Origin: a virus
Virus genome (UHGV): UHGV-0388326
Direction: 5' to 3' (one strand)
DNA: 39,034 bases
Part shown: one piece after another, positions 25 to 36,703 of the stretch
Layout of the letters: each line of letters starts with the position of its first letter
Numbering within the stretch: the stretch's first letter is position 1
Translations under genes and position numbers: made by a program
The notes under the pieces: generated by a model
The model's database searches: none
Seen by the model: only the letters and a program-made list of their open reading frames with translations
Told to the model about the DNA's origin: nothing

Positions 25-342
25 GTGAAATGCCAGCAGCACCGCAGCAGGAGGTTAACCGTGGCTAACCTGCAACTTGCCGTCAAAGGTGAATACTTCG
101 ATGCCATGATTCGCGGGGAGAAAACGGAAGAGTATCGCCTGTGTAATGACTATTGGAATAAGCGAATTATGTTCCGCGAGTATGACCGCCTGATTATCAC
201 AAAGGGATATCCGAAGCGCGACGATTCCAGCCGCAGAATTGACGTCCCGTATGACGGATATGAAATCAAGACAATCACACATCCGCACTTCGGTGATAAA
301 CCGGTAAAGGTGTTCGCGATAAAGGTAAATATTGATGGCTAA
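25..342 (+). CDS. hypothetical protein, possibly ASCH-like; may be 5'-truncated or continue from window end
   Basis: ORF with GTG at 25 and no in-frame stop in 1-24; motif KGEYFDAMIRGEKTEEYR resembles ASCH-domain signature; stop overlaps next start. Confidence 0.4.
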   Translation: MKCQQHRSRRLTVANLQLAVKGEYFDAMIRGEKTEEYRLCNDYWNKRIMFREYDRLIITKGYPKRDDSSRRIDVPYDGYEIKTITHPHFGDKPVKVFAIKVNIDG

Positions 343-673
343 ATCAGCAGCAGAGCGCAAAGCCGCTCAGAGAGCCAGACAAGCTGCATCTGGTGTGCGT
401 AAGCTGGAAATTGTGCTTGATGCTCAGGAAATTGAAATGCTGGAGCGTAACTGTGCCACGCGTCGCCCCGGGCGTGCGCCTTACGAATTTGGTGAGTATA
501 TAGCGTTACTGATCCGCCAGGATGATGCACGCGTGCGCGGGCGTATAAAATCGATCAGCAGAAAACGTTGCGGTAAGTGCGGCGGGAGAGTTCCAGTTAA
601 TTCATGCCCGTGTAATGGTGACTCGCAATGCTGGGTGACTAAAGGCTGGCATGAAACGAAATTAATAGTGTGA
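335..673 (+). CDS. hypothetical protein with C-terminal Cys cluster (putative zinc finger); positional candidate for late-gene regulator
   Basis: ATG 335 overlaps upstream stop (ATGGCTAA); C-terminus RKRCGKCGG...CPCNGDSQCW; last gene before terminator and terS. Confidence 0.45.
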   Translation: MAKSAAERKAAQRARQAASGVRKLEIVLDAQEIEMLERNCATRRPGRAPYEFGEYIALLIRQDDARVRGRIKSISRKRCGKCGGRVPVNSCPCNGDSQCWVTKGWHETKLIV

Positions 674-681
674 CATGTCAC
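670..681. repeat. 12-bp perfect palindrome GTGACATGTCAC (copy 1 of 3)
   Basis: overlaps stop codon of gene 335-673. Confidence 0.7.
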
Positions 682-722: not shown

Positions 723-748
723 GCCGCCAACTATGGCGGCTTTATTTT
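723..748 (+). terminator. Rho-independent terminator-like hairpin upstream of terS
   Basis: GCCGCC-AACTAT-GGCGGC followed by TTTATTTT. Confidence 0.5.
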
Positions 749-2910: not shown

Positions 2911-2930
2911 AGCCAGCTCATCGGCTGGCT
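2911..2930. terminator. hairpin between convergent terL and minus-strand gene, likely bidirectional terminator
   Basis: AGCCAGC-TCATCG-GCTGGCT; U-run on minus strand (TTGTTTT), weaker GTTTG on plus. Confidence 0.5.
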
Positions 2931-2934
2931 GTTT

Positions 2935-2946
2935 GTGACATGTCAC
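2935..2946. repeat. 12-bp perfect palindrome GTGACATGTCAC (copy 2 of 3)
   Basis: immediately after terL terminator hairpin. Confidence 0.7.
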
Positions 2947-2950
2947 GGTG

Positions 2951-3289
2951 TTATTGCTCGCTTAACTTCTGCTTCAGCAAGTAACCTTCGAGCATCCAGA
3001 TTTTGTTTACAGCATTCTGCCGGGCAATCTTCCGACCAATTTCTGCATCAAAGTTTTCCGGGCTTGCACAGGCGCTCTCTCCGGTGACGGTGAAGCCATT
3101 TTGTAGAGTCAATACACAAAATGTCAGCAGAGCCAAACTGTCGTGATAGTCATCGCCAGTTGCAATAGCTCCATCAGCAGCAGTGAAGTACGTTTCCGCA
3201 AGAATAATGCTTTCGATATGGTCTGGCGTAACGCGCGGGGCGGTTTTGCCTTTCTCAACGATTTCTTTTTCGATTTGCTGGTCGTTCAT
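2951..3289 (-). CDS. conserved hypothetical phage protein (112 aa)
   Basis: ORF with GGTGAG RBS upstream of ATG 3289; family not confidently recognised (possibly N4 gp49/Sf6 gp66-like, low certainty). Confidence 0.6.
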   Translation of the reverse strand: MNDQQIEKEIVEKGKTAPRVTPDHIESIILAETYFTAADGAIATGDDYHDSLALLTFCVLTLQNGFTVTGESACASPENFDAEIGRKIARQNAVNKIWMLEGYLLKQKLSEQ

Positions 3290-3487: not shown

Positions 3488-3564
3488 TGGCGTGGCATGC
3501 AGGATTCGAACCTGCGACCAACCGCTTAGAAGGCGGTTGCTCTGTCCAACTGAGCTAATGCCAC
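3488..3564 (-). tRNA. tRNA-Arg, anticodon UCU (reads AGA), CCA encoded
   Basis: Minus-strand 77 nt GTGGCATTAGCTCAGTTGGACAGAGCAACCGCCTTCTAAGCGGTTGGTCGCAGGTTCGAATCCTGCATGCCACGCCA; 7-bp acceptor stem GTGGCAT/ATGCCAC, D-arm GCTC/GAGC, anticodon loop CTTCTAA, T-loop TTCGAAT. Confidence 0.9.
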
Positions 3565-3886: not shown

Positions 3887-3901
3887 TTACCTGAAAGGTA
3901 A
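3887..3901. promoter_or_regulatory. TTACC-N5-GGTAA site upstream of virion gene operon
   Basis: TTACCTGAAAGGTAA in AT-rich region before gene at 3992. Confidence 0.5.
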
Positions 3902-4212: not shown

Positions 4213-5892
4213 ATGGCGGAAACAACTAAAGAGCGATTGAACAAACAGTTCGCACAACTTGAAAGCGAGCGTCAGTCGTTCGAGCCGCACTGGCGCGAGT
4301 TGAGTGATTACATCAACCCGCGTGGTTCCCGCTTTCTGACTTCTGAGGTCAACCGTAACGATCGACGCAATACACGCATTATTGATTCGACCGGGACTAT
4401 GGCGGCGCGCACTCTCGCCAGCGGCATGATGTCAGGCATCACAAGCCCCGCGCGTCCGTGGTTTCGCCTGGCTACGCCAGATCCTGAAATGATGGATTAT
4501 GGCCCTGTTAAGTTGTGGCTTGAGGCGGTGCAGAACCGCATGAACGATATGTTCAATAAGTCGAATCTCTATCAGTCGCTGCCGCAGTTATACGGAAGCC
4601 TCGGCACATACAGCACTGGTGCAATGGCAGTGCTGGAAGATGACGAGGACATCATTCGCACAATGCCATTCCCGATAGGCAGTTACTACCTGGCTAACTC
4701 ACCTCGTGGCAGTGTGGACACCTGTTTTCGCAAGTTCGCTATGACTGTTCGTCAGCTTGTTCAGGAGTTCGGGCTAAATAACGTCAGCGAATCCGTAAAA
4801 AGCATGTGGGAAAGCGGCACCTACGAGAAGTGGATTGAAGTGATGCATTCGGTTTACCCGAACATTGACCGCGATACATCGAAGCTGGATAGCAAGAACA
4901 AGCCATTCAAATCGGTTTATTACGAGGTTGGTGGCGATAACGACAAGTTGTTGCGTGAGTCCGGATTCGATGAGTTTCCAATTATGGCTCCGCGCTGGGA
5001 AGTTAACGGCGAAGATGTTTATGGATCATCATGCCCGGGTATGCTGGCGCTTGGACCTGTTAAGGCATTGCAGCTTCTTCAGAAGCGCAAGTCGCAGTTG
5101 ATTGATAAAGCCACCAATCCGCCGATGGTTGCTCCGACTTCCCTCAAGAATCAGCGTGCCTCCCTTCTTCCTGGCGACATCACGTATATCGATCAGATTA
5201 CTGGTCAGGATGGTTTCAGGCCTGCTTATCTGGTTAACCCCAGTACAGCAGATCTGGTAGCAGACATTCAGGACACTCGGCAAATCATTAACAGCGCCTA
5301 CTTTGTCGATCTGTTCATGATGTTGCAGAACATCAATACCCGCTCGATGCCTGTTGAAGCGGTGATCGAAATGAAAGAAGAAAAACTTCTGATGTTGGGG
5401 CCGGTTCTGGAGCGTCTGAACGACGAATGTCTTAATCCTCTCATTGACCGCGCTTTCTCGATGATGGTGCGTAAAAACATGCTGCCGCCACCGCCTGACG
5501 CGATGGAAGGTATGCCCCTGAAGGTCGAATACATTTCCGTCATGGCTCAGGCGCAGAAGTCTATCGGCCTGTCCAGTCTGGCATCCACGGTCAACTTCAT
5601 TGGTCAACTTGCGCAAGCGAAACCAGAAGCTCTCGACAAACTCAACGTTGATCAGGCGATCGATGCATTCGCTGATATGTCCGGAGTGTCTCCAACCGTC
5701 ATTGTTCCGCAGGAACAGGTTGAGCAGACTCGCCAGCAACGGGCACAGCAGCAACAGCAGCAACAAATGATGGCGATGGGAATGGCGGCGGCACAGGGCG
5801 CCAAGACGCTAAGCGAAGCTAAAACTTCGGATCCGAGTGTTTTGTCAGCTATGGCGAATGCAGTTAGTGGTCAGGGTGGGCAATCACAATGA
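4213..5892 (+). CDS. portal (head-to-tail connector) protein, T7 gp8-like
   Basis: 559 aa; Gln-rich C-terminus QQRAQQQQQQQMMAMGMAAAQGA resembling T7 gp8 tail; position after terminase. Confidence 0.8.
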   Translation: MAETTKERLNKQFAQLESERQSFEPHWRELSDYINPRGSRFLTSEVNRNDRRNTRIIDSTGTMAARTLASGMMSGITSPARPWFRLATPDPEMMDYGPVKLWLEAVQNRMNDMFNKSNLYQSLPQLYGSLGTYSTGAMAVLEDDEDIIRTMPFPIGSYYLANSPRGSVDTCFRKFAMTVRQLVQEFGLNNVSESVKSMWESGTYEKWIEVMHSVYPNIDRDTSKLDSKNKPFKSVYYEVGGDNDKLLRESGFDEFPIMAPRWEVNGEDVYGSSCPGMLALGPVKALQLLQKRKSQLIDKATNPPMVAPTSLKNQRASLLPGDITYIDQITGQDGFRPAYLVNPSTADLVADIQDTRQIINSAYFVDLFMMLQNINTRSMPVEAVIEMKEEKLLMLGPVLERLNDECLNPLIDRAFSMMVRKNMLPPPPDAMEGMPLKVEYISVMAQAQKSIGLSSLASTVNFIGQLAQAKPEALDKLNVDQAIDAFADMSGVSPTVIVPQEQVEQTRQQRAQQQQQQQMMAMGMAAAQGAKTLSEAKTSDPSVLSAMANAVSGQGGQSQ

Positions 5893-6185
5893 CAGATTAC
5901 GAAGATGATCAACTGAAAGAAGAAAACGCCCGTAAGCAACGTGACATGGCACAGCGTGAAATTGATGACATTCGCTTTGTCATGAGCAGTGAACAGGGGC
6001 GTCGCGTTGTCTGGTCGGTGCTGGAGAAAGGCCGTGTGTTTTCCGCTATCTCACCGATGGACGCTATGGCAATGGCATTTAATGAGGGGCAACGCAATCT
6101 GGCGCTGGAACTGTTTCAGCGCGTTATGGCGCATTGCCCTGAACAGTATTTGAAGATGGCCAAAGAGGCCAGTGAACAGGAGTGA
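5889..6185 (+). CDS. hypothetical head-module protein
   Basis: 98 aa ORF translationally coupled between portal and scaffold. Confidence 0.5.
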   Translation: MTDYEDDQLKEENARKQRDMAQREIDDIRFVMSSEQGRRVVWSVLEKGRVFSAISPMDAMAMAFNEGQRNLALELFQRVMAHCPEQYLKMAKEASEQE

Positions 6186-17519: not shown

Positions 17520-19994
17520 ATGAGACAGGAATGTATACAAGCGGTCCAGCAGGCGGCGCAGCGCACGTTAACGGCGCGAGAAATACAGAACATTGAAGAC
17601 CGCATTTATCGAAATATGCGCTCCATTGCTCGTGATGACCCGATGTCGTGGAGACAACTTTCCGAATCAGAGCGGCTATATCGTGCAGCACAATTGGCAT
17701 CTGAAGAATTACAGCGAGAAGCGGCATTAAAGAAACGTCGTGTGGCCCTCACTATAGCCGCACGTCAGAGATTGGATAAATTTATCAATAGCTATCAAGG
17801 GGCTGATGGGAAACTTGGCGCTCTTAACCGTACTATTGCTTTTAATGCAGACGGTAAATCGAATTTCCTCTCTGTTGAGTCCAGAACAAAAGCCACTCGT
17901 GATTATGCATTGAGTCAATTGCAAGAGGCATTTGAAGCAGTTGATCCTCGCTTTTTTGGCCTGTTTGAAGATGAAGCTGGCGTGCGTGACCTGGTATATG
18001 AAATGCGAGGGCAAAATACTGGCAATGCTAAAGCAAGAAAAGGTGCTAAGGCGTGGAGAGAAGTTACAGAGCTGCTGCGCCGCCGGTTTAATGATGCTGG
18101 TGGAGACATTGGCTATCTCGAAAACTGGGGGATCCCTCAACATCATTCTATGGAAAAGGTTGGGGCGGTATCAAAGGATAAGTGGGTTGGCGATGTTATA
18201 GGTAAGCTGGATCGCAAATATTATACCCGAGCCGATGGACAACTGATGAACGATGCCGAGTTGTCTGCATTTCTTGGAGAGGCTTATAACACGATCGCTA
18301 CTGGTGGGCTGAATAAGCTTACTGATACCGGAATGCGAATTTCCGGCGCACGTGCTAACCGTGGTAATGCATCACGACAGATACATTTCAAAGATGCAGA
18401 TTCCTATCTCCAATATCAACAACTTTATGGTGATCGCTCTCTATGGGAAATCATGGTCGGTCACTTGGAAGGTATCAGTAAAGATATTGCTCTGGTGGAA
18501 ACATATGGTCCAAACCCCGATCATGTTTTCCGCTCCCTTCTTGATCAGGTTAAGGCAGAAACGGCAACAGCTAACCCGAGTAAAACCGGTAGCGTCGAGC
18601 GTCTGGCGAACAAAACAGAGAACTTGTACAACTTTATTTCCGGAAAGACACAGCCTGTAGCGAATCCGCACATCGCGCGATGGTCTGACAATATCCGCAA
18701 CTGGCTGGTTGCCAGCAGACTCGGATCCGCGTTGCTGTCATCGTTCTCTGATCTTGGAACCATGTATCTGTCTGCGAAGGTTACCAACCTTCCAATGAAC
18801 CAGTTATTTCGCAACCAGCTTGAAGCTATGGACCCAACGAACCGTACTGAGCTTGCGCGGGCGCGCCGCGCTGGCCTGGCGATGGAATCTCTACTTGGCA
18901 GCGTTAACCGCTGGGCGATGGATAATATGGGGCCGTCTGTGTCTCGTTGGGCGGCAACGGCGGTAATGCGTGCCAGTGGGCTTACAGCATGGTCAGATGC
19001 GCACAAGCGCGCCTATGGCGTAACCATGATGGGAAGCCTGGGAGAAGTAGTGTCACGGACACCAGACCTTCGTAGCCTCGATGACTCTGATTTTCGTATC
19101 CTGAAAAGCAAAGGGATTACTGACACAGACTGGAGCGTATGGAAGCTGGCGCAACAGGAGGACTGGGGGAACGGTAATAATACGATGCTGACACCGGAAA
19201 GCATTATGCGTATCCCTGATTCAGCAGTTAAACATCTTGGTGAGCCTGAACGTGTGAAATTTGAGGCAATGCGTAAACTGCTCGGTGCCGTAACTGAAGA
19301 AGTTGATATGGCTGTTATTACACCGGGCGCACGTGAACAGATGTTCGTAGGGTCTGGTCTTCAGCGTGGAACATGGAAAGGTGAATTAACGAGAAGTGTT
19401 TTCCTGTTTAAATCGTTCCCTATCTCGGTAGTTATGCGTCACTGGCATAGAGCTATGGGGATGCCGTCTGCTGGTGGGCGTGCGGCATATATAGCAACGT
19501 TTTTAGCAAGCACAACCATGCTTGGTGCTCTTTCCATGCAGATTACTGATCTTATTAATGGGAGAAATCCAAAAGAAATGACCGGTGACAACATGGTTAA
19601 ATTCTGGATAAATGCATTTTTAAAAGGTGGTGGGGCAGGGTTGTATGGTGATTTTCTTTTCTCTGACCACACCAGGTACGGGAGCGGCGCACTAGCGTCG
19701 ATGCTTGGCCCGGTAGCTGGTCTGGTTGATGACGTAGTGAAGATTGCTCAGGGCATACCGTTAAATGCTGTGGAAGGGAAGAATGAGCAGACTGGTGGTG
19801 ATTTGGTTAAGCTTGGGAAAGGTTTGATGCCTGGTGCGAATCTCTGGTATTTGAAGGCGGCTCTCGATCACATGATCTTTAACCAGATGCAGGAGTATTT
19901 TTCACCAGGCTATTTGCGTAAAATGGAGCAACGTTCAAAGAAAGAGTTTAACCAGACATACTGGTGGCGACCTCAGGATGTCACTCCGCAATAA
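17520..19994 (+). CDS. internal virion / ejection protein (large)
   Basis: 824 aa, last gene of structural operon before accessory cluster. Confidence 0.5.
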   Translation: MRQECIQAVQQAAQRTLTAREIQNIEDRIYRNMRSIARDDPMSWRQLSESERLYRAAQLASEELQREAALKKRRVALTIAARQRLDKFINSYQGADGKLGALNRTIAFNADGKSNFLSVESRTKATRDYALSQLQEAFEAVDPRFFGLFEDEAGVRDLVYEMRGQNTGNAKARKGAKAWREVTELLRRRFNDAGGDIGYLENWGIPQHHSMEKVGAVSKDKWVGDVIGKLDRKYYTRADGQLMNDAELSAFLGEAYNTIATGGLNKLTDTGMRISGARANRGNASRQIHFKDADSYLQYQQLYGDRSLWEIMVGHLEGISKDIALVETYGPNPDHVFRSLLDQVKAETATANPSKTGSVERLANKTENLYNFISGKTQPVANPHIARWSDNIRNWLVASRLGSALLSSFSDLGTMYLSAKVTNLPMNQLFRNQLEAMDPTNRTELARARRAGLAMESLLGSVNRWAMDNMGPSVSRWAATAVMRASGLTAWSDAHKRAYGVTMMGSLGEVVSRTPDLRSLDDSDFRILKSKGITDTDWSVWKLAQQEDWGNGNNTMLTPESIMRIPDSAVKHLGEPERVKFEAMRKLLGAVTEEVDMAVITPGAREQMFVGSGLQRGTWKGELTRSVFLFKSFPISVVMRHWHRAMGMPSAGGRAAYIATFLASTTMLGALSMQITDLINGRNPKEMTGDNMVKFWINAFLKGGGAGLYGDFLFSDHTRYGSGALASMLGPVAGLVDDVVKIAQGIPLNAVEGKNEQTGGDLVKLGKGLMPGANLWYLKAALDHMIFNQMQEYFSPGYLRKMEQRSKKEFNQTYWWRPQDVTPQ

Positions 19995-28439: not shown

Positions 28440-28454
28440 TTACCTTAAAGGTAT
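28440..28454. promoter_or_regulatory. TTACC-N5-GGTAA-like site upstream of int
   Basis: TTACCTTAAAGGTAT (one mismatch), nested between inverted GACGGTAT repeats. Confidence 0.4.
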
Positions 28455-33521: not shown

Positions 33522-33598
33522 TTACCGTTGAGGTAATAATTATGCGTATCTGGTTTGATGTCAATAGATATGAGTTAAAAAAATTACCCGTTAGGTAA
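33522..33598. promoter_or_regulatory. OL-like region with two TTACC-N5-GGTAA operators
   Basis: 33522-33536 TTACCGTTGAGGTAA; 33584-33598 TTACCCGTTAGGTAA; between repressor terminator and early-left operon. Confidence 0.6.
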
Positions 33599-34295: not shown

Positions 34296-34358
34296 TTACC
34301 CAACAGGTAAATGCACCTCATGGGTAACTATCCTTGATTTTTGTTACCTTATAGGTGA
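34296..34358. promoter_or_regulatory. OR-like region: three tandem TTACC-N5-GGTAA operators between divergent repressor and cro-like genes
   Basis: 34296-34310 TTACCCAACAGGTAA; 34313-34327 GCACCTCATGGGTAA; 34344-34358 TTACCTTATAGGTGA. Confidence 0.65.
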
Positions 34359-34680: not shown

Positions 34681-34695
34681 GTACCTCAAAGGTAA
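34681..34695. promoter_or_regulatory. TTACC-N5-GGTAA-like site
   Basis: GTACCTCAAAGGTAA (one mismatch). Confidence 0.4.
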
Positions 34696-36626: not shown

Positions 36627-36703
36627 TTACCTGCTGGGTAATAAAATATTCTAAAATCTATTGATTTCGTGTCTTATGTGGTTTTTAATTACCTAAGAGG
36701 TAA
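36627..36703. promoter_or_regulatory. two TTACC-N5-GGTAA sites upstream of DUF1064 gene
   Basis: 36627-36641 TTACCTGCTGGGTAA; 36689-36703 TTACCTAAGAGGTAA overlapping the RBS, ATG at 36707. Confidence 0.5.

Follow-up and report, generated by a model that had tools for sequence, protein, structure and literature searches.

Abo et al. are said to have described, in 2000, a roadblock that LacI forms on its operator O3 at the 3' end of lacI. Bound LacI blocks RNA polymerase at this site, which gives an mRNA without a stop codon, SsrA tagging, and autoregulation (Semsey et al. 2013, PMC3711431), and a 2026 study reports that DNA-binding proteins block polymerase and ribosomes and that trans-translation provides the rescue (PMC13584721). 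Here, we describe a 12-bp palindrome, GTGACATGTCAC, in the viral genome UHGV-0388326; the whole stretch analyzed, 39,034 nt in length, is referred to as the window and is a temperate Uetakevirus, a podophage of the phiV10/epsilon15 type. Like O3, the palindrome overlaps, or lies just past, the 3' end of an open reading frame (ORF) that encodes its candidate regulator, with the stop codon inside the palindrome or at most about 20 nt upstream at more than 200 phage loci. The phage system differs from LacI-O3 in that its protein is unrelated to LacI, in that binding and truncation are inferred, and in that extra copies of the site stand at the ends of other operons, beside intrinsic terminators, with the gene and its site forming a unit that is mobile between lineages. 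Judging from sequence comparison, we see about an even chance that the palindrome is the operator of the protein family represented by gene 335–673 and that it acts at the 3' ends of genes, either as a roadblock or to control termination.

An exact scan of the window found three copies of GTGACATGTCAC (Table 1), in agreement with the first-pass annotation of this DNA, which had listed three identical 12-bp palindromes at 670, 2935, and 20421. The chance expectation for this 12-mer in the window is about 0.002 (39034/4^12). Chance is excluded, because no copy appeared in any of 100 dinucleotide-preserving shuffles of the window (0/100). Relaxing the scan to two mismatches added two near-copies, at 5941 and 28176. 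The first, GTGACATGGCAC, is kept in phiV10 and in IMG/VR relatives, for which coding constraint alone may account. The second, GTGACATGGCAT, is kept in epsilon15, and SPC32H carries GTGACATGTCAT at the equivalent place; from its sequence, this degenerate copy may be a weak fourth site.

The key feature, which the first-pass annotation had missed, is the link between the motif and the gene that ends in copy 1. The motif accompanies one gene family (window 335–673, epsilon15 gp49, N15 gp46; PHROG 536), and the more than 200 loci at which the family gene has its TGA stop in the motif or no more than about 20 nt away represent at least six lineages, namely Uetakevirus, lambda-like phages, ZF40, N15-like phages, P2-like Yersinia phages, and Pantoea AH07. 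In a set of 21 homologue loci, comprising one genome per species at 54–86% amino acid identity, GTGACATGTCAC or a variant that differs only in the center was found at the stop codon or at most 10 nt away in 14 loci, and the motif stands at or near the stop in 7 of the 11 loci that have no terS/terL downstream, i.e., in non-Uetakevirus contexts. The offset from stop to motif in the homologue loci ranges from −4 to +21 nt, with the TGA inside the motif in most of them. The lambda-like phage Chlobot carries the exact motif 7 nt after the family gene, as the sole copy in 46 kb, and the Pectobacterium myovirus ZF40 carries it 2 nt after the stop, together with two further exact copies that flank cI-cro-cII. 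At or near the stop of the family gene, Pantoea AH07 has GTGACCTGTCAC, a Yersinia P2-like phage has TGTGACGCGTCACA, and N15 has GTGACTGGTCAC (gene 46). The last sequence occurs three times in N15: at the stop of gene 46, inside repA, and in the interval from the stop of gene 33 to a terminator; the chance expectation for three matches to one 12-mer in 46 kb is about 0.006. Among IMG/VR loci, the motif was found at or near the stop in 49 of 49 N15-like loci and in 51 of 55 Yersinia-type loci, where the four exceptions are truncated genes. The motif and the candidate regulator gene co-occur across lineages, as is expected of an operator and its regulator, with the phages SaltyDalty and AsXd-1 as exceptions.

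The family comprises about 1000 clusters at 90% identity, every one of which is named 'hypothetical', although PHROG 536 bears the label 'transcriptional regulator'; sequence searches of Pfam, NCBIfam, and PDB with the protein encoded by window 335–673 gave no match. The N-terminal helix of its members is basic (AERKAAQRARQ); a strand-helix-helix pattern (RKLELVLD.QE.EML.RN...RRPGR.PY...EYI.LLIR) and a C-terminal CxxC-x8-10-C-x7-C motif are also conserved. Weak structural evidence is suggestive of a ribbon-helix-helix fold followed by a C-terminal Cys4 zinc ribbon, and the product of 335–673 is probably a dimeric ribbon-helix-helix protein with such a zinc ribbon. Homology to lambda Ea8.5, considered because the Chlobot homologue sits in the ea/b region, was dropped when the PDB search gave no sequence match. 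Covariation of the putative beta-strand with the motif was likewise rejected, as a Providencia subfamily with an altered strand still has exact motifs in 23 of 29 loci.

The local anatomy is the same at all three copies of the window. Read along the neighboring ORF, a stop codon that lies inside the motif or at most 7 nt before it is followed by the palindrome and then by an intrinsic terminator, which is the placement at 3' ends and near terminators that the first-pass annotation had given. The TGA (671–673) of ORF 332–673 lies in copy 1, the hairpin at copy 2 is 4 nt away from the palindrome and is followed on the minus strand by TTGTTTT, and the hairpin at copy 3 abuts it. The three hairpins differ in sequence, so that the 12-mer alone is common to all three copies. 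Two other roles for the motif were examined and rejected. GTGACA resembles a promoter −35 element (TTGACA), but this is a single weak match at copy 1 that is not kept in the other contexts; the central ATG could serve as a start codon only in SaltyDalty-type phages, and in the window it yields just a 7-codon ORF.

Table 1. Coordinates of the palindrome, its near-copies, and associated features in the 39,034-nt window. CDS, coding sequence.
Feature	Position	Strand	Remarks
Candidate cognate regulator gene	335..673	+	112 amino acids; epsilon15 gp49, phiV10 p55, N15 gp46; PHROG 536
Motif copy 1, GTGACATGTCAC	670..681	.	Supplies the TGA stop of the gp49-like gene (motif positions 2-4)
Intrinsic terminator-like hairpin and T-run	723..740	+	41 nt 3' of copy 1; upstream of the terS promoter and operators
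Terminator hairpin beside copy 2	2911..2930	-	T-run on the minus strand; follows terL on the + strand
Motif copy 2, GTGACATGTCAC	2935..2946	.	Flanked by the terL terminator hairpin and by the stop codon of a minus-strand gene that varies
Variable accessory gene, Pfam Phage_gp49_66	2951..3289	-	Stop 4 nt before copy 2 on that strand
One-mismatch near-copy, GTGACATGGCAC	5941-5952		Inside CDS 5889-6185
Variable 137-amino acid ORF, PHROG 8691	20004..20417	+	Stop 3 nt before copy 3
Motif copy 3, GTGACATGTCAC	20421..20432	.	Between the final structural-operon ORF and the terminator of that operon
Intrinsic terminator hairpin	20433..20450	+	Directly abuts copy 3
Degenerate fourth copy, GTGACATGGCAT	28176..28187		Motif TGA is the stop of an Rz-like lysis gene; end of lysis cassette
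TTACC-N5-GGTAA sites	760-774, 778-792, 3887-3901, 21415-21429, 22475-22489, 22855-22869, 26263-26277, 28440-28454, 33522-33598, 34296-34358, 34681-34695, 36627-36703		15 sites in all

Over the terminase region, the window shares about 97% identity with E. coli O157 typing phages 9/10 and with phiV10; its identity with Salmonella phage epsilon15 is about 80%. The first-pass annotation had proposed positional conservation in relatives as a check, and the exact 12-mer was indeed found at the same three positions in epsilon15, SPC32H, Tyrion, and phiV10, where the flanks have diverged or been swapped. Across 80 IMG/VR loci with about 99% identical terL, at least three unrelated minus-strand ORFs lie to the right of copy 2, always with a gap of 4 nt from stop to motif. 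Copy 3 is present in 74 of 80 related loci, and at least four unrelated ORFs stand upstream of it, ending either with the TGA of the motif itself or 2–7 nt before the motif. BLAST alignments to relatives are interrupted at the motif. Because its flanks are replaced and the alignments break there, the motif is a conserved island exactly on mosaic junctions, and these junctions coincide with the motif edges at all three copies. As befits an operator, the two-fold symmetric site is conserved beyond its flanks. The more general idea of the first-pass annotation, a functional and probably protein-bound element at 3' ends, is upheld by this genus-wide positional conservation and by the link to a candidate DNA-binding gene, whereas the specific candidates that it named fared differently (see below).

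These junctions also bear on an alternative in which the motif is a recombination boundary or linker that serves, with the terminator, as a homology anchor or crossover point, so that adjacency to the gene reflects cassette structure rather than regulation. The motif is, as this alternative would have it, a short conserved sequence at module junctions, which is the likeness to the boundary sequences of lambdoid phages (Susskind & Botstein; Clark et al. 2001, both cited in PMC3233612); unrelated genes end 0–7 nt away from it, its TGA serves as the stop of several unrelated ORFs, and RecE/RecT-type recombinases are encoded by these phages. We nevertheless rate a mere linker as unlikely. For homologous exchange, 12 bp is a very small length, the motif has no associated recombinase, and a passive anchor needs neither a perfect palindrome nor half-sites that remain invariant around a free center across 35%-identical subfamilies. 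Unlike boundary sequences, the motif is perfectly palindromic, keeps its half-sites invariant, goes with one gene family, and occurs in phages of the Uetake, N15, P2, and ZF40 types. Moreover, selection that keeps a functional element while its flanks turn over would place junctions there anyway.

We then asked what the conservation of the motif says about its chemical nature. A consensus built from 39 non-redundant contexts reads Y-GTGAC-NN-GTCAC-R (general pattern with a free center, GTGACNNGTCAC), in which the half-sites are invariant; the center is AT in 28 of the 39 contexts and varies between subfamilies, with TG, GC, and CT found besides AT. No compensatory stem changes were seen among the 39 contexts. 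As RNA, the 12-mer forms a hairpin of −1.2 kcal/mol, which is no better than in shuffles (z about 0), and this hairpin is absent when copy 3 is folded in its context to the minimum free energy. Given the invariant half-sites, the free center, and the weak RNA hairpin, a DNA site fits better than an RNA structure.

The same data weigh on an RNA-level reading, in which the motif would be a nut-like or 3'-end signal (GUGACNNGUCAC) whose reader, either a host factor or the gp49-like protein with its arginine-rich N-terminus, brings about antitermination or transcript processing or stabilization. The motif lies just upstream of terminators along the direction of the adjacent ORF, the copies of ZF40 and HK97-like phages lie downstream of early promoters or cro, like nutL/nutR, and the gene 46 and gene 33 copies of N15 share the same orientation relative to transcription. 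The N-terminus MAKSAAERKAAQRARQ is rich in arginine and resembles the arginine-rich motifs of lambdoid N proteins. The motif also shares with the lambdoid nut/Q systems the use of short terminator-associated cis elements and of a phage regulator that is small, basic, and presumably zinc-containing and is encoded where the early operon ends. It differs from them in having no boxA/boxB-like structure, no stable and covarying stem-loop of the nut/boxB type, and no promoter-proximal pause context, and Q-like proteins are already encoded by N15, ZF40, and Chlobot. In addition, copy 2 follows the terL terminator on the plus strand, and no terminator follows the motif in N15, Chlobot, or AH07. The RNA processing or antitermination signal that the first-pass annotation had offered among its candidates is thus weakened by the poor hairpin and the lack of compensatory change, and we regard an RNA element as very unlikely.

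Another alternative is that a conserved Enterobacterales host protein binds the motif, either MatP, at what would be a near-matS site, or an uncharacterized host factor whose target many temperate phages would have put at the ends of genes. The motif equals the E. coli consensus matS, GTGACATTGTCAC (PMC8669397), minus one central base; matS is defined as the 13-bp GTGAC[AG]N[TC]GTCAC (PMC3603311). The identical 12-mer is found across hosts from Escherichia to Xenorhabdus and Pectobacterium, and it also occurs in HK97-like phages without the family gene and at a lambda-like tail gene junction. Identity with matS was rejected, as the motif is 12 bp long with a spacer of 2 bp rather than 3 and does not match the 13-bp definition, and a search of the window and its relatives with the pattern GTGAC.{0,6}GTCAC found no GTGAC-N3-GTCAC. 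The motif also differs from matS in location, being on a phage and not in the Ter macrodomain. Alignment of the family with MatP by hhalign gave no significant similarity, and homology to MatP was rejected on this ground; a resemblance in fold and in half-sites remains. The gene guaA is presumably located outside the Ter macrodomain. Phages of this group integrate at guaA (PMC9782041), prophages avoid true matS (PMC3603311), and ectopic MatP sites at that locus would be expected to do harm. In E. coli, N15-like phages have GTGACTGGTCAC at all three sites, whereas Uetakeviruses have AT centers, a difference that one factor does not explain; because N15 and phiV10 share this host and yet differ in the center, a phage-encoded binder is favored over a host factor. 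Finally, a host factor leaves the overwhelming linkage to one phage gene unexplained. On balance, binding of the motif by a host protein is improbable in our view. Another host protein, SlmA, was considered separately. Its consensus, GTGAGTACTCAC, is palindromic over 12 bp and carries G in position 5 and C in position 8; since the motif has C5 and G8 in every copy, a SlmA site was rejected.

The first-pass annotation had also suggested a terminase (pac) site and a methyltransferase target containing CATG. In favor of a packaging (pac/cos) site or a methyltransferase/restriction target, terS-terL lies between copies 1 and 2, CATG and GTGAC both occur in the motif, and these phages encode a methylase of the MT-A70 type. 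Neither proposal held up, and we consider both extremely improbable. The genomes of this group are circularly permuted, and because this is so for Tyrion, packaging is taken to be headful, without fixed ends. A cos or pac site defines genome ends and goes with a cognate terminase, but the motif tracks a non-terminase gene into cos phages with unrelated terminases (N15, lambda-like, and P2-like). The records of phiV10 and Tyrion do begin or end inside the palindrome; however, the phiV10 record is cut after the stop of the last gene, and Tyrion is permuted, so a cos site was rejected. As for methylation, CATG is not the conserved part of the motif, given that the center varies between subfamilies (TG, GC, CT), and with only three sites per genome the motif cannot define the specificity of a methylase.

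Returning to the operator reading, a dimer of the gp49/gp46-family protein would read both GTGAC half-sites on duplex DNA. The gene and its site form a portable unit, with the gene's own TGA within the left half-site, and Uetakeviruses have added copies of the site at the 3' ends of further transcription units. The idea of a roadblock arises because the site recurs on or just after stop codons, those of the regulator and of at least 10 unrelated ORFs (copies 2 and 3, Providencia-type junctions, gpM, and cro), and just before terminators. Bound protein would block or modulate the elongating RNA polymerase at gene ends and thereby insulate operons; it may stall polymerase with the active site upstream of the stop codon, leaving mRNAs truncated before the stop, as with LacI at O3 of lacI. 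With their stop codons in the roadblock's shadow, mRNAs could be truncated in this way. The outcome would be autoregulation of the regulator and shut-off of end-of-operon genes, with copy 1 acting as a conditional barrier that keeps early-right transcription out of terS and copies 2 and 3 separating convergent units. The chief alternative under the same binding model is antitermination, in which the protein would load onto polymerase just before terminators. The proposal can be carried further, to a mobile 'stop-codon operator' module in which stalling would yield non-stop mRNAs that are destined for tmRNA tagging and destruction, sealing operons and timing the shut-off of accessory or early genes; taken in full, this scheme is distinctly unlikely.

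Several findings weigh against the proposal that the motif is the operator of this family. First, the exact motif occurs, in a non-coding position, at the stop of a cro-like gene in the complete HK97-like genomes SaltyDalty and AsXd-1, in which hmmsearch found no family gene at E ≤ 10, with positive controls at 1e-48 or better. Second, in nine IMG/VR loci, the stop of a lambda-like tail gene, gpM, is followed by the motif, a hairpin, and then gpL, and no family gene was found in the stretch examined of these loci. Third, in the Providencia-type subfamily, the motif is not at the stop of the gene; the exact motif lies 0.3–1.5 kb upstream of the gene at other junctions in the 23 of 29 loci mentioned above, and the linkage persists in this form. 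Fourth, the extra copies of ZF40 sit within annotated CDSs, and the Uetakevirus-like prophages L091 and L093 have copies with mixed centers within one genome. Fifth, an intrinsic terminator right after a roadblock is partly redundant. Scanning IMG/VR for GTGACATGTCACGG returned at least 80 loci; among the matches listed, 33 have the family gene and 8 more are Uetakeviruses, and the remaining listed matches include chance matches in high-GC viruses, coding coincidences, and two genuine non-coding contexts without a nearby gene, i.e., the gpM stop and the cro-like stop. BLAST of two contexts that lack the gene against phage records gave no match. Because gpM-type and HK97-like contexts carry the motif alone, the motif can exist without the gene, for which a recombination relic, regulation in trans by a co-resident prophage, or another binder are possible explanations. 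Cross-talk between co-resident prophages is one possibility that the HK97-like phages with a site and without the gene bring up.

Some of the motif occurrences have coding or local features of their own. Read in frame, the 12-mer encodes Val-Thr-Cys-His, and it occurs within the CxxCxGxG zinc-finger coding sequence of DnaJ-like and Q-like proteins (L499, position 7723; L386, 898; L415, 1969; L383, 2807), so a genome-wide census of the motif must mask such coincidences. At 18870–18881 of Escherichia phage SaltyDalty (L498), the cro-like gene is annotated to stop, and the next gene to start with ATG, within G-TGA-C-ATG-TCAC; GAGG stands 6 nt upstream of the ATG, and the palindrome thus encloses a stop-start junction. 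In the high-GC IMG/VR contigs L390, L416, L407, and L408, the exact 12-mer stands amid further GTGACA/GTGAC repeats within 20–30 nt, which could be iteron-like repeats with no relation to the present system or a remote version of it. The Yersinia P2-like prophages L207 and L162 have an additional half-site-like GCGTCAC or GTGTGACGT about 25–45 nt downstream of the motif, possibly as an auxiliary half-operator of that subfamily. Prophages of Pseudocitrobacter and Citrobacter werkmanii (L087 and L088, 3336–3420 in each) carry a LexA-box-like TACTGT-N8-ACAGTA within 40–60 nt after the motif at the gp49-like stop; its sequence suggests a promoter under SOS control, which might serve an antirepressor.

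A palindromic operator with a small cognate regulator is ordinary as a class. What is unusual is the stop codon embedded in the putative operator across at least six lineages, the placement at 3' ends and terminators, the fixed role at mosaic junctions, and the one-base difference from matS; the 12-mer was found in no paper of the literature searched, and the family has no curated annotation. If the operator proposal is true, it would give a function to a hypothetical family of wide distribution among prophages of Escherichia, Salmonella, Klebsiella, Citrobacter, Yersinia, Pectobacterium, and others, and to the cis element that punctuates these prophage genomes. It would also provide a second natural case, after lacI-O3, in which the gene for a regulator bears that regulator's operator at its 3' end, and would add a regulator to the poorly understood expression program of phages of the epsilon15/phiV10 type, which serve in O157 typing and detection as well as in structural work. 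The finding accounts for mosaic junctions at one precise 12-mer in these phages, and even with another binder the motif is an annotation landmark for gene ends in temperate enterobacterial phages. Its near-identity to matS poses the question of whether a single spacer base separates host chromosome organization from phage regulation.

The window contains a second family of palindromic sites. TTACC-N5-GGTAA was observed 15 times versus 0.67 expected, at promoter regions (Table 1), both within the immunity region and ahead of terS, gp3, the tailspike, the lysis genes, and int. The match of these sites to the 'repressor' sites annotated in epsilon15 suggests that the prophage repressor directly controls the late operons. 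Like the 12-mer, the Uetakevirus Rep operators are multi-copy palindromic protein sites, and the two occur in the same genomes; the Rep operators differ in sequence (ATTACC-N5-GGTAAT, as annotated in epsilon15) and in being at promoters, whereas the 12-mer is at 3' ends. None of the 15 sites overlaps a 12-mer, and a Rep operator was rejected as its identity.

Two further features of the window lie outside these sites. A tRNA-Arg gene (anticodon tct) is located on the minus strand at 3488–3564, in the variable region between terL and the portal operon, and the same tRNA is annotated in several relatives. The G+C content falls to 0.34–0.40 at 24000–27000, around the minus-strand ORF 25119–26210, and the O-antigen modification (lysogenic conversion) genes of relatives occupy the equivalent place; owing to the low G+C content and to this position, the region is probably horizontally acquired cargo.

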